A DNA stretch of 34,566 nucleotides from a virus (taxonomy: Duplodnaviria > Caudoviricetes), in the IMG/VR virus record IMGVR_UViG_3300011918_000007, positions 1 to 34,566 of that record. One strand, 5' to 3'. The notes under the pieces are model-generated. The model saw only the letters and a program-made list of their open reading frames with translations, ran no database searches and had not been told where the DNA came from. Within the stretch, counting starts at the first letter, position 1; every line of letters starts with the position of its first letter. The position numbers and the translations under genes are program-made. Below are positions 5,343 through 16,731 of this stretch, one piece after another.

Positions 5343-5825
5343 TTAAACTGCGTTTGGGTTGTGTGTGTGGTACTTGGCTGCTGCATTGCAATAAGCCATG
5401 TACGCATCTTCTTTGTTGTCGTATCTGCCAAGTGCAATCGTTTTGTACTTGTGCTGAATACAGGAAAACCATTTTTTTCTTTGTGAATCCCAACTTACAC
5501 CTTTGTAGCCAGACTTATTGTTTTCTTGTTTTTCTTTGTTTTCTTGATTTTGTTTTTTGCTTACAACGCGCAAATTTGAGATTCTGTTGTCTGTTGGAAT
5601 TCTGTTGATGTGGTCTATGTATTCAGGCAATTCGCCGTAAACATAAAGCCAAGCCAAACGATGTGTGAGGTACAGCTTTCCATTTATGTTGATTCTGAAA
5701 TAACCTTGGCCACAATGACCCGCTGGTGTTCCAGCATGGCAACGACCTCTGCGGACTTTGTTAATAAAAATACCAGTTTCAGGGTTGTAATCAAACAACT
5801 CTTTTAAACGCTGCTGCGTAATCAT
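5343..5825 (-). CDS. HNH endonuclease with C-terminal AP2-like domain (copy 1)
   Basis: HRLAWLYVYG, IDHINR..TDNRISNLR..S...N..N and N.SGYKGVSW...W...I..LG.Y motifs; likely start at MITQQRLKELFDY. Confidence 0.9.
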   Translation of the reverse strand: MITQQRLKELFDYNPETGIFINKVRRGRCHAGTPAGHCGQGYFRININGKLYLTHRLAWLYVYGELPEYIDHINRIPTDNRISNLRVVSKKQNQENKEKQENNKSGYKGVSWDSQRKKWFSCIQHKYKTIALGRYDNKEDAYMAYCNAAAKYHTHNPNAV

Positions 5826-5857: not shown

Positions 5858-5906
5858 TTAGCAAGGGGGAGGTTCAATCCCCCCTGTCCTCCGTCGAGTT
5901 AGCTAA
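5858..5906 (-). ncRNA. Structured leader RNA, three-way junction (copy B)
   Basis: UUAGC-U-AA/UU-GCUAA, CUC/GAG and GGGGGA/UCCCCC stems; loop UGAACCU complementary to two downstream AGGUUCA sites. Confidence 0.6.
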
Positions 5907-7707: not shown

Positions 7708-7922
7708 ACTTGTTCCAAAATTTCGTGGGCGAATGTTTCAATGCGAGTGTGGTCTTCGCGTGTTATGTCGTATGTGATGTTGTAGTCGTTGTCGTACAAC
7801 CAAACTTGAACATCATCAGGCTCATCAAAAGCACAAGTGACTTTTTTCTGTGAACCGTAAAAGGTGATGTAGGTGGTAAACACATGGTCAAAGTGTTCTG
7901 GTTTGAGGTAAGCATCTTTCAT
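7704..7922 (-). CDS. Hypothetical early protein (72 aa)
   Basis: SD AGGA before ATG 7922; first gene of leftward operon. Confidence 0.6.
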   Translation of the reverse strand: MKDAYLKPEHFDHVFTTYITFYGSQKKVTCAFDEPDDVQVWLYDNDYNITYDITREDHTRIETFAHEILEQV

Positions 7923-7967
7923 ATTGTTTCCTAAGTTACCGTTTGCGTTGCGCTGCGGGATGTATGT

Positions 7968-7997
7968 ATTGTGTAGCAAAATAGACAGAATTACCAA
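7968..7997 (-). promoter_or_regulatory. Putative leftward early promoter
   Basis: TTGGTA-N18-CACAAT on minus strand in AT-rich divergent region. Confidence 0.35.
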
Positions 7998-8022
7998 CAA
8001 TCTAAAAAATATTTTCTATGTG

Positions 8023-8051
8023 TTGTATTTTTGTCAATTTATCTATACACT
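8023..8051 (+). promoter_or_regulatory. Rightward sigma70-type promoter, probably giving a leaderless mRNA
   Basis: TTGTAT-N17-TACACT; ATG 8058 lies 7 nt after the -10 and has no SD. Confidence 0.6.
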
Positions 8052-8057
8052 ACTAGC

Positions 8058-8228
8058 ATGGACATTAACAAGATTATCATGAACGCAGGCTCGCAGAGTG
8101 AGCTTGCCCGTATGCTAGGGGTTGAGCGTGGCGCTGTATGGCTGTGGAAGCGAAATGGGGTCATACCTAAGTCGCGTTTGTGGCAGATACAGTTGCATTT
8201 TCCTGAACTATTGAAAGACAAACCATGA
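8058..8228 (+). CDS. Cro/YdaS-like HTH regulator
   Basis: GSQSELARMLGVERGAVWLW...IP..R..QI..; first rightward gene. Confidence 0.85.
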   Translation: MDINKIIMNAGSQSELARMLGVERGAVWLWKRNGVIPKSRLWQIQLHFPELLKDKP

Positions 8229-8512
8229 GTTACGCTGAAACAGAGATGAAAATTATCCGTCAGGTCGAGGCAACTTGCGGTTTTGACGGAAACATTGAGT
8301 TTGACCTAGAGGCCATCGAGGACTACATGGAATCGCTGACATGGTTTAACGAACAAAACAGCCCAGACAAGATGGCCAAGATGATCGGCTGGATTGGTAT
8401 TTCGCTGATTAGCATCTGTGCGACATTGGATGTGAACTTTGCTGATTGCCTAAACATAGCTTATGAAGAAGGCGAAAAAAGTTCTGAAGCGTTTGAAGAT
8501 GACGATTCTTAG
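8225..8512 (+). CDS. MazG-like all-alpha protein, possibly catalytically degenerate
   Basis: Helical pattern ending IG.I.ISLI..CA.LDV.F.DCL..AYEE resembles phage MazG-like proteins; acidic catalytic motif poorly conserved. Confidence 0.5.
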   Translation: MSYAETEMKIIRQVEATCGFDGNIEFDLEAIEDYMESLTWFNEQNSPDKMAKMIGWIGISLISICATLDVNFADCLNIAYEEGEKSSEAFEDDDS

Positions 8513-8520
8513 GCTATAAT
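8493..8520 (+). promoter_or_regulatory. Promoter for replication operon
   Basis: TTGAAG-N16-TATAAT; predicted start at about 8527, the 5' edge of the structured leader. Confidence 0.65.
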
Positions 8521-8527
8521 TTTTTTA

Positions 8528-8590
8528 AACAAGGCTAGGTGCGAAGTCATGAGCGCACCGAAAAGAGTTACCCGTTCTCCTGCCATTGTT
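8528..8590 (+). ncRNA. Structured leader RNA, three-way junction (copy A)
   Basis: GGC-U-AG/CU-GCC, GUGCG/CGCAC and GAG/CUC stems; ACCCGUU loop complementary to AACGGGU at 8600-8606. Confidence 0.6.
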
Positions 8591-8625
8591 TCTTTTTCAA
8601 ACGGGTTGTTAAAAACTGGAAAACA

Positions 8626-9405
8626 ATGCACTACTACACATTTAATGTGGGTGACTACCGCAAGGATACTGGTCACCTTACAACGCTTGAGCATGGCATT
8701 TATCGCCAATTGCTTGATTGGTACTACCTAGACGAAACACCAATACCCAAAGAAACCCAAACGGTTATCAGGCGGTTACGATTGGGTTCTGATTCGGATA
8801 TTCAATCACTACAAAATGTGCTAAATGACTTCTTTGTTTTGCAAGACGATGGGTATCACCAAGGCCATTGCGATGTGGTTATTGCCAAGTATCACGAGAA
8901 CGCAGACAAGAACAAGGTCAACGGGAAGCTAGGTGGAAGGCCAAAGAAAACCCAGTCGGTTATTTTGGGAAACCCAACTGAAACCGAATCAAAAGGCAAC
9001 CACCAACCAATAACCATTAACCAAGAACCAAAGGTAAAGACGCAGCGCGGTTCCCGCCTGCCTGCCGATTGGTCTTTGCCAGATGATTGGAAAGAATGGG
9101 CAGAGCAAGAACGATCAGACCTAAACATCAAGACGGTGGCAGACAGTTTTAAAGACTTTTGGATTGCCAAGCCTGGAGCTGGTGGCGTTAAGTTGGATTG
9201 GCAAGCAACATGGCGCAACTGGATACGCAGTCAATCAGCGCCCAAGACTTTTGCCAACAAGTTTGATGTAGCGCACATTACTACACCAACACCGCCAAAC
9301 CAAGACGCTGCATTGCGGAAGATTGAAGAACATAGAAAAAATGCTGTGCCGCCTTCGTTAGAAGTGTTGGCTAAATTGGCAGAATTACGAAAGGCGGCGC
9401 AATGA
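8626..9405 (+). CDS. YdaU (DUF1376)-family replication initiator (lambda O-like)
   Basis: MHYY.F.VGDY..DT.HL..LEHG.Y..LLD.YY N-terminus; NGKLGGRPKK; C-terminal F.DFW....KLDW.ATWRNW domain. Confidence 0.88.
   Translation: MHYYTFNVGDYRKDTGHLTTLEHGIYRQLLDWYYLDETPIPKETQTVIRRLRLGSDSDIQSLQNVLNDFFVLQDDGYHQGHCDVVIAKYHENADKNKVNGKLGGRPKKTQSVILGNPTETESKGNHQPITINQEPKVKTQRGSRLPADWSLPDDWKEWAEQERSDLNIKTVADSFKDFWIAKPGAGGVKLDWQATWRNWIRSQSAPKTFANKFDVAHITTPTPPNQDAALRKIEEHRKNAVPPSLEVLAKLAELRKAAQ
8949..9032. repeat. Iteron-like repeats, probable replication origin
   Basis: AACC-N5-GGTT at 8949; AAACC at 8970 and 8981; five tandem AACCANN 7-mers at 8998-9032. Confidence 0.6.
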
Positions 9406-10070
9406 AAGTTTTGCCAATCAAGCCTGAAGAAGCAGAGCCTTGGTTGCTCAAGAAGCATTACGCAAAGCGTATGTGTCCAATCAGCTACGCTTTTGGTGTT
9501 TACCGTGACACGCAATTGATTGGCGTTGTGACTTACGGAACGCCAGTAAGCAGCGCCTTGCGTGTTGGTGTTTGTGGTGAAAAATGGATAGAAAATGTAA
9601 TTGAATTAAATCGGCGTTGTTGTGAAAACGAAAAAAACGTTGCTTCAATACTTGTTGGCAGGTCTTTAAAAATGTTGCCAAAGCCTTCGGTAGTTGTTTC
9701 CTACGCAGATACAGAGCAAGGTCACGTTGGTTATGTGTATCAGGCCACAAATTTTGTTTATACAGGTCTAAGTGCTAAACGAACAGATTGGAAACTTAAA
9801 GGCATGGAGCATTTGCATGGCGCAACTGTGGCAGATATGAGCCGAGGCCAAGAAAACCGCGCTCAATGGATGCGTGACAAATTTGGTGATGACTTTTACT
9901 TAGAAGACAGGGCAAGAAAACACCGCTATGTGTATTTTGTTGGAAGCCAAAAACAAAAGAAAGCCATGCTGTCAGACCTGAACTACGGCCTTGAATCGTA
10001 TCCAAAAGGCGACAGCAGACGTTATGACGCTGGCGGTGTGGTTGCAACACAAGAACTTTTATTTGTATGA
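9402..10070 (+). CDS. Mom-like adenine-modification protein (GNAT fold)
   Basis: KKHYA, AFG.Y....LIGVVTYG.P, ELNR, SYAD..QGHVG.VYQATNF.YTG and KHRYVYF motifs. Confidence 0.8.
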   Translation: MKVLPIKPEEAEPWLLKKHYAKRMCPISYAFGVYRDTQLIGVVTYGTPVSSALRVGVCGEKWIENVIELNRRCCENEKNVASILVGRSLKMLPKPSVVVSYADTEQGHVGYVYQATNFVYTGLSAKRTDWKLKGMEHLHGATVADMSRGQENRAQWMRDKFGDDFYLEDRARKHRYVYFVGSQKQKKAMLSDLNYGLESYPKGDSRRYDAGGVVATQELLFV

Positions 10071-13205: not shown

Positions 13206-13283
13206 AATAGCGAAACCTCTGCAACCGTGAAGGGATTGCAAAGGCTTCTAACCAAACAACTGAAAAGGAGTTGAAATGGCTGA
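13205..13283 (-). ncRNA. Predicted cis-antisense RNA to HNH copy 2
   Basis: Minus-strand GTGAAG-N17-TAAAAT promoter; 15-bp stem fully paired only on minus strand; covers SD and ATG. Confidence 0.5.
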
Positions 13284-16659: not shown

Positions 16660-16731
16660 TGCAAAAAGCCTAGAAGCGGGAGCTTGCTAGGCTTTTCTAA
16701 CCACTTGATAAAGGAGCTATCGCATGGGTGA
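16660..16731 (-). ncRNA. Predicted cis-antisense RNA to HNH copy 3, ending in hairpin terminator
   Basis: Minus-strand -10 TAAAAT at 16737-16742; AAAAGCCTAG/CTAGGCTTTT hairpin at 16664-16696. Confidence 0.45.

Follow-up and report, generated by a model that had tools for sequence, protein, structure and literature searches.

The window, by which we mean the whole stretch of 34566 bases analysed here, is the record of a complete linear virus with a lambdoid-like gene set, including Erf-like, exonuclease, small Cro-like regulator and NinB genes and several HNH genes. Neither an integrase nor a full-length CI-type repressor was identified among the 15 proteins scanned. A divergent promoter region (7922-8059) lies between a leftward 72-codon gene without a PHROG match and the Cro-like gene. 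The leader considered here, copy A, precedes a DUF1376 gene, and a related leader, copy B, precedes an HNH endonuclease gene on the other strand (Table 1). An earlier note on this DNA, made from the letters of the window, had placed copy A in control of a replication initiator. The DUF1376 product does fall in PHROG families annotated as primosomal or replication-initiation proteins, but that annotation is the whole basis for the term, and since the gene contains no iteron array and the search for a relative of solved structure found none, we use "initiator" as an annotation only. The Mom-like gene that follows is probably translationally coupled to the DUF1376 gene, which would put it indirectly under the same leader. 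It occupies the slot where a helicase loader usually sits.

Table 1. Genes and leader features at the copy A and copy B loci (coordinates of the window; offsets in brackets are relative to the start codon).
Feature	Position	Strand	Remarks
MazG-like gene	8225-8512		flanks the leader upstream
sigma-70-like promoter, TTGAAG-N16-TATAAT	8493..8520	+	10/12 consensus; transcript start predicted at the 5' end of P1
copy A, int-alpA-type three-way junction	8527..8591	+	Rfam RF02996 30.8 bits; own model 49.9 bits; MFE; covariation
copy A P1	8527-8535 / 8582-8591	+	junction strands UA, GAAAA, CU
copy A P2 hairpin	8538..8559	+	loop 8544-8553; candidate dimer (kissing) loop, putative role
copy A P2-loop palindrome TCATGA	8547-8552	+	purine-flanked
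copy A P3 hairpin	8565..8579	+	loop 8568-8576 complementary to both downstream sites
U-rich linker	8589..8597	+	weak terminator at most
copy A site 1	8600..8606 (-26 to -20)	+	7-bp P3-loop match, -10.0 kcal/mol
copy A site 2	8614..8620 (-12 to -6)	+	overlaps Shine-Dalgarno position; 5 bp + bulge, -2.7 kcal/mol
DUF1376 (PF07120) gene	8626..9405	+	primosomal/replication-initiation annotation; ATG 8626 is the true start
Mom-like DNA-modification gene	9402..10070	+	overlaps the DUF1376 stop codon (ATGA)
copy B, divergent int-alpA-type junction	5858..5906	-	P1 5906-5858; found by eye; before HNH gene
copy B P2	5898-5889	-	loop GACG
copy B P3 loop	5878-5870	-	
copy B site 1	5849-5843	-	7-mer complementary to B loop, identical to site 2
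copy B site 2	5834-5828	-	7-mer complementary to B loop, identical to site 1
HNH endonuclease gene behind copy B	5343..5825	-	phrog_99, E 1.6e-68

The motifs that the earlier note had named at copy A were all found in place, with TTGAAG at 8493-8498 and TATAAT at 8515-8520, followed by P2, P3, the U-rich tract and the two sites; the self-complementary P2 loop had been overlooked. Its three-way junction also stands, but in a different register, since both the MFE structure and Rfam pair G8538 with C8559 and leave the strands UA, GAAAA and CU unpaired, in place of the proposed AG/CU pairs and CGAAAA linker. Site 2 is at the Shine-Dalgarno position as described, but is better read as 5 bp with one bulged base, as in close relatives, than as a degenerate copy of site 1. 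The core alone folds as the three-way junction (-16.9 kcal/mol). The folding energy is not beyond chance, with z of +0.89 for the whole 134 nt and -1.05 for the core, and therefore the support for the element is comparative. A 7-bp match to the P3 loop, the length seen at site 1, arose by chance in 34 of 20000 shuffled copy A tails.

The earlier note had not recognised the RNA family, and here the Rfam comparison supplied a name. The int-alpA model (RF02996) matches copy A over its full length (positions 1-71) with 30.8 bits, E 2.6e-6 in its own genome, which is below the gathering threshold of 35.8 bits; the junction bases CUAG, GAAAA and CUG agree with the model and the MFE fold is in the same register. 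A close relative, L126, passes the threshold at 39.4 bits, and in 20/20 chosen pattern-match loci int-alpA was the sole Rfam match, 10 of them exceeding the cut-off. A covariance model built from 50 of the loci gives copy A 49.9 bits. Given this sub-threshold match and the continuity with members above the threshold, copy A is almost certainly, on comparative sequence grounds, a member of the int-alpA family, as a divergent homologue rather than a curated member. A new RNA family is thus ruled out, as copy A and all 20 tested relatives match int-alpA. Membership of the C4/CI/IsrK group is likewise ruled out, there being no match to Rfam C4 or isrK in this genome at E up to 10, and no C4 match in the loci of 32 relatives.

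Further homologues proved abundant. A scan of IMG/VR with the junction pattern gave an estimated ~3300 matches, and all three helices are present in 102 of the 120 loci listed from it. The same kind of scan in bacterial genomes returned 121 matches, mostly chance, of which 23 were structured by the filter applied; a second site was found in 14 of the 23 structured matches and in 13 of the 98 unstructured ones. The titles of the genome records name Planctomycetes, Acidobacteria, Bacillota, Actinobacteria, Pseudomonas and Bradyrhizobium, and on one scaffold of Novosphingobium organovorum (L210) two matches to the pattern are separated by 240 nt. When the leader was compared with annotated phages by BLAST, chance matches alone were obtained.

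Covariation is strong in all three helices, in line with what the earlier note had expected of a true structure. When all 118 unique pattern matches are counted and none is left out, pairing at the variable positions of P1, P2 and P3 is kept in 105-114 of them, whereas shuffling of the columns reached maxima of 62-105; each of these positions shows 3-6 pair types. A deeper P3 pair is kept in 74/118 (shuffle maximum 67). The shuffles ignore relatedness, and since relatives share ancestry these counts overstate the number of independent events. The earlier note had also described two G-C to A-U swaps between copies A and B. The inner one is doubtful, since the opposition is A.C in 6/11 unique B-type relatives, these 11 having been picked out by eye from 31 unique pattern matches.

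The P3 loop is complementary to the tail of its own transcript far more often than to that of another. In 117 loci (one record with a short tail being dropped), the best run was at least 6 in 77, a second run was at least 5 in 61, and both held in 53, while 500 partner swaps gave means of 9.6, 5.4 and 3.0 and maxima of 20, 12 and 8, respectively. By the same run criteria, control matches of the loop numbered 1/0 for its own upstream sequence and 1/3 for its own coding region. The geometry was measured in those of the 112 filtered loci, 104 in number, where a start codon follows within 24-55 nt. The median position at which site 1 begins is -24.5, and site 2 covers a median of -12 to -8; the spacing of the sites has its mode at 13 nt, and the site 2 stretch is the better anti-SD match. 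The median duplex energy is -8.0 for site 1 and -6.4 for site 2, compared with -3.1 and -3.4 for swapped partners, and the stronger site is site 1 in 77/104 loci and site 2 in 27/104. The code is diverse, with 48 different site-1 5-mers among 92 of the 104 records. Set against six chosen close relatives, copy A has a single loop base altered from C to G, and each of its two sites carries the matching G-to-C change; in the B family (L138, L139, L292) a C-to-T change in the loop accompanies G-to-A at both sites. It is very probable that both sites pair with the P3 loop in vivo.

Within the window, the code duplexes of copies A and B are -10.0 and -9.0 kcal/mol for own pairs and -3.8 and -4.9 kcal/mol for cross pairs, and in 8 other genomes with both types own pairs range from -7.0 to -12.7 and cross pairs from +0.3 to -5.2 kcal/mol. 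Such weak cross-pairing does not show selection, since random partners are equally weak. In the related genomes G028 and G029 (loci L371, L360, L319, L320), the A-type loop contains GAACCU and the B-type loop is the variant that would not cross-pair with it. This is one event only, and it hints at avoidance of cross-talk between A and B.

The -10 hexamer of copy A, at offset -19, is at the modal position for its relatives. A -10 hexamer was found at -21 to -12 in 73/104 loci compared with 14 in the coding control, and a TTG -35 in 35/104 compared with 1. The conserved position of the promoter leads us to predict that the leader RNA is the 5' end of its own transcript. A start at GTG 8539, which the earlier note had named as damaging to its reading, is ruled out: just 7 of 38 DUF1376-type loci have at least 29 open codons upstream, the phase of the RNA relative to the start splits 16/14/8 among these 38, and the upstream frame is therefore not conserved. 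The note had further proposed a test for attenuation at the U tract, which is not a family-wide feature; at least 6 U occur in the best 8-nt segment of 52/104 loci, some loci have 1-3, and no terminator was called at copy A, so that a U-tract terminator or attenuator is unsupported as the family mechanism. An antisense counter-transcript was also considered and rejected. Minus-strand -10 sites show no positional peak in 103 loci, hence no conserved antisense promoter, and the one 9-of-12 minus-strand site at copy A (8612-8585) is within chance.

The genes that follow the RNA are varied. A Pfam scan of 69 of the 104 relatives found 26 DUF1376, 5 HNH, 2 antirepressor/Rha and 1 integrase-like gene downstream, and no alpA gene. 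Among 35 further genes, chosen as Pfam-blank or short, PHROG assigned 12 to replication, primase or helicase-loader families, 7 to endonucleases, 1 to an antirepressor and 1 to an unknown family, with 14 blanks. The view of the earlier note that this is a portable, cis-located RNA family, with an interchangeable loop and target code before unrelated DNA-acting genes, is thus supported. The loop/site code also varies freely before one gene family. All 9/9 full-length relatives of the DUF1376 protein of the window (one of them 100% identical) carry the RNA; in 2/9 it stands one gene further upstream, in front of a 78-codon gene to which the DUF1376 gene is coupled. In several related phages (L365, L372, L375) the replication locus has the A-type RNA in front of an HNH-like gene and not DUF1376, which suggests that a nuclease can insert downstream of the leader and thereby come under its control.

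The P2 loop has a second kind of complementarity, to itself. After removal of duplicates, matches without the outer P1 pair and five matches judged to be chance, 112 loci with 59 unique P2 sequences were left, and of these 47 contain a palindrome of at least 4 nt and 29 one of at least 6 nt, compared with means of 30.4 and 8.5 and maxima of 41 and 17 when the interior of P2 was shuffled (n=1000). The same test found no palindrome excess in P3 loops. In 42/48 the palindrome is centred off the stem axis, displaced by 0.5-2 nt in the 3' direction, in 3/48 it is centred on the axis, and 11 different central 4-mers are seen; a palindrome that is both off-axis and variable argues against a DNA operator. 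The feature is not universal, as no 4-nt palindrome is present in 11-12 of the 59 P2 sequences, and where the P2 loop is short it offers just 4 self-complementary bases. As to the strand, the minus strand is more stable than the plus strand in 95/110 cores, and the oppositions counted were A.C 19 against G.U 4 in P3 (mostly at the loop base) and A.C 38 against G.U 31 next to the loop-site helices, P2 alone leaning to the plus strand with G.U 12 against A.C 4. We infer that this test is biased by the A/C-rich loops, yet it lends a plus-strand RNA no support. The stability of the cores is modest (median z -1.7; 21/60 below -2).

Copy B was not detected by Rfam, nhmmer, regex or our own covariance model (E 2.4). 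Two of its near-identical relatives score on int-alpA, L138 with 27.7 bits and L292 with 25.5 bits, while L134 was not matched; L145, which precedes a related HNH gene, reaches 41.5 bits. From these sequence scores copy B is probably an int-alpA homologue more divergent than copy A. A third loop/site code is carried by the B-type L327. The start codon of copy B closes a 5-bp hairpin with site 2 in its loop (5840-5823, minus strand), an arrangement also visible in L327, a distant B variant before an unrelated gene; site 2 may be met loop-to-loop. The other two phrog_99 HNH genes of the window have different leaders, at 13207-13275 and 16660-16723, each consisting of a long hairpin, then the common TTCTAACCA, then a small hairpin at the SD. 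Their folding z values are -3.06 and -1.75, neither has an Rfam match, and they are possibly a second portable nuclease leader.

How might such a leader act? We propose, with a little less than even confidence, that copy A could act as a self-sensing brake, lowering translation of the predicted replication gene as its P3 loop moves from site 1 to the site at the SD. On a lone transcript, the P3 loop would sit on site 1, the earlier to be transcribed and in most cases the stronger of the two, and the resulting pseudoknot would keep the ribosome-binding site open. As transcripts build up, through multiplication of the phage DNA or co-infection by a related phage, leaders would kiss in pairs through their P2 loops. 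In this dimer initiation would be blocked by a P3 loop covering site 2, supplied either by the partner or by a short RNA consisting of the leader alone. A brake of this kind would cap dose-sensitive genes such as those for replication proteins, HNH nucleases and antirepressors, and copies A and B, having different loop codes, would act independently of each other. That the net effect is translational down-regulation we regard as probable, while the dimer as the trigger is a possibility of not quite even weight. Against the brake, site 2 of copy A is weak (-2.7 kcal/mol), and the U tract varies so much that a short leader form is not assured. The relatives in which site 2 is the stronger site, the P2 sequences without a palindrome, the more stable minus strand and the modest stability of the cores also count against it.

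Two mutually exclusive sites and a conserved junction would equally suit a switch within one transcript, in which the P3 loop occupies either site 1 (on) or site 2 (off), the choice being set by folding kinetics, a junction ligand (a riboswitch) or a protein such as the gene's product, the P2 palindrome then being a protein-binding or structural loop. The constant geometry, with a modal site spacing of 13 nt, and the predicted position of the RNA at the 5' end of its own transcript fit this too. The P2 loop, however, changes in sequence (11 central 4-mers) yet stays self-complementary, which a protein site would not require, and the downstream products are unrelated, so that no ligand or product shared by all of them readily suggests itself; we consider the switch rather unlikely. 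It is improbable that the leader works instead as an sRNA like CI or IsrK, a terminated or processed leader-only RNA acting in trans on both sites without P2 kissing and giving immunity-like or timing control. A U-rich tract does follow P1 in 52/104 relatives, Rfam types int-alpA as an sRNA, and IsrK and P4 CI show that a long transcript can be the target of its own short form (PMC4825925, excerpts), but the match here is just 5-7 bp, no terminator is called at copy A, both sites are downstream where those of CI are on either side, and the P2 palindrome would go unexplained.

The sign of the control could also be the reverse of the proposed brake, so that a lone transcript is off, with the loop on site 2 or the pseudoknot hindering 30S loading, and a second leader or a translating ribosome activates it, like IsrK or the IncI repZ pseudoknot. 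Site 1, at about -24 from the start codon, is just where the 30S footprint ends. Site 2 is the stronger in 27/104 loci, and IsrK is described as activating in trans (PMC4825925, excerpts). Site 1 is nearer and earlier, though, and is the stronger in 77/104 loci, and positive feedback on nucleases and initiators seems less plausible to us; we judge the reverse sign quite improbable. The greater stability of the minus strand in 95/110 cores, the palindromes in P2 and the DNA-acting neighbour genes would be in keeping with an element that acts as DNA, through operator-like inverted repeats or an opposite- or single-strand structure. The palindrome is off the P2 axis in 45/48, the freedom of the loop/site code before one gene family is not what such an element would show, and the placement on the plus strand between promoter and start codon is fixed, which makes the DNA-level reading very improbable indeed.

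Taken to its full extent, the self-sensing brake would make int-alpA leaders widespread concentration sensors free of protein and ligand, with the mRNA counting itself by kissing-loop dimerisation and using a programmable loop to shut its own ribosome-binding site, a portable control of copy number and incompatibility for the replication initiators of phages and a limiter of the dose of selfish nucleases, with orthogonal codes within one genome; this broad form is speculative and in our opinion somewhat unlikely. If dimer-triggered repression were true, a bacterial-type mRNA would sense its own concentration, a new route of copy-number control for phages would be at hand, and so would a programmable part of ~100 nt for synthetic biology. 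Should the cis switch alone be right, an orphan motif would still have gained a mechanism. What makes that mechanism directly testable is the two-site code, together with the self-complementary loop and the fixed placement between promoter and start. The range of the motif is far wider than its name, as most copies precede genes for replication or for HNH nucleases, and structured ones occur in genomes of several phyla.

The int-alpA motif reportedly originates with Weinberg et al. 2017. Rfam types RF02996 as "Gene; sRNA". Copy A shares with int-alpA the three-way junction, the CUAG/GAAAA/CUG junction bases and the U-rich tail, and the loop of the Rfam consensus is already complementary to the last bases of the model, that is, to site 1, the model stopping before site 2. 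Copy A differs in scoring below the cut-off and in its long P2 with a 6-nt palindrome and its 3-bp P3, and it precedes a DUF1376 gene whereas the name int-alpA, if we read it correctly, implies int or alpA. In the literature searched, which omits most subscription papers, "RF02996" does not occur and no mechanism of this kind was found described; the available portions mention int-alpA just in a table of predicted RNAs or in gene order, with no function found, and "alpA" is absent from the accessible part of the main text of Weinberg et al. (PMC5737381). Copy A is a real, divergent leader of the abundant int-alpA type, and hence of a known kind, with a mechanism that is possibly novel.

In the IncI/IncB repZ system, a leader loop pairs near the ribosome-binding site of the initiator and links translation to copy number; this pseudoknot activates, and a separate antisense RNA competes with it. 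Copy A is similar in having a leader loop that would pair near the ribosome-binding site of a (predicted) replication initiator, but it differs in having two sites, no conserved antisense promoter and no identified leader peptide. The repZ pseudoknot and the Inc antisense RNA are the subject of titles in the reference list of PMC10724649. The comparison with P4 CI and P1 C4 RNAs made in the earlier note holds as an analogy, and the note was right that the sequence is neither; membership does not follow, there being no Rfam C4 match. P4 CI is a branched phage leader RNA complementary to the sites seqA and seqC of its own transcript, and in IsrK of Gifsy-1 the short form acts on the long form (PMC4825925, excerpts). 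Copy A resembles this group, which includes the P1-P7 C4 antisense RNA (RF01695), in being a branched phage leader whose own transcript holds two complementary sites. The CI targets, however, flank CI and cause termination, whereas copy A has one loop and two short downstream targets, one at the SD, and IsrK activates where the model for copy A is repression.

The P2 loop of copy A resembles the HIV-1 DIS, a purine-flanked 6-nt palindromic loop, and the GACG of copy B is of the type of the MoMuLV kissing loop (PMC7357161, in the part available). These are unrelated eukaryotic viral RNAs concerned with genome packaging, and the likeness is one of loop layout alone. In the homing endonucleases I-TevI, segB and mobE of T-even phages, hairpins that hide the ribosome-binding site limit translation (PMC2988022, in the part available), so that RNA structure hides the ribosome-binding site of a homing endonuclease much as in the model of the leader proposed here. 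The T-even structures are simple hairpins removed by use of a late promoter, whereas the int-alpA-type leader has a junction, loop pairing and a promoter of its own.
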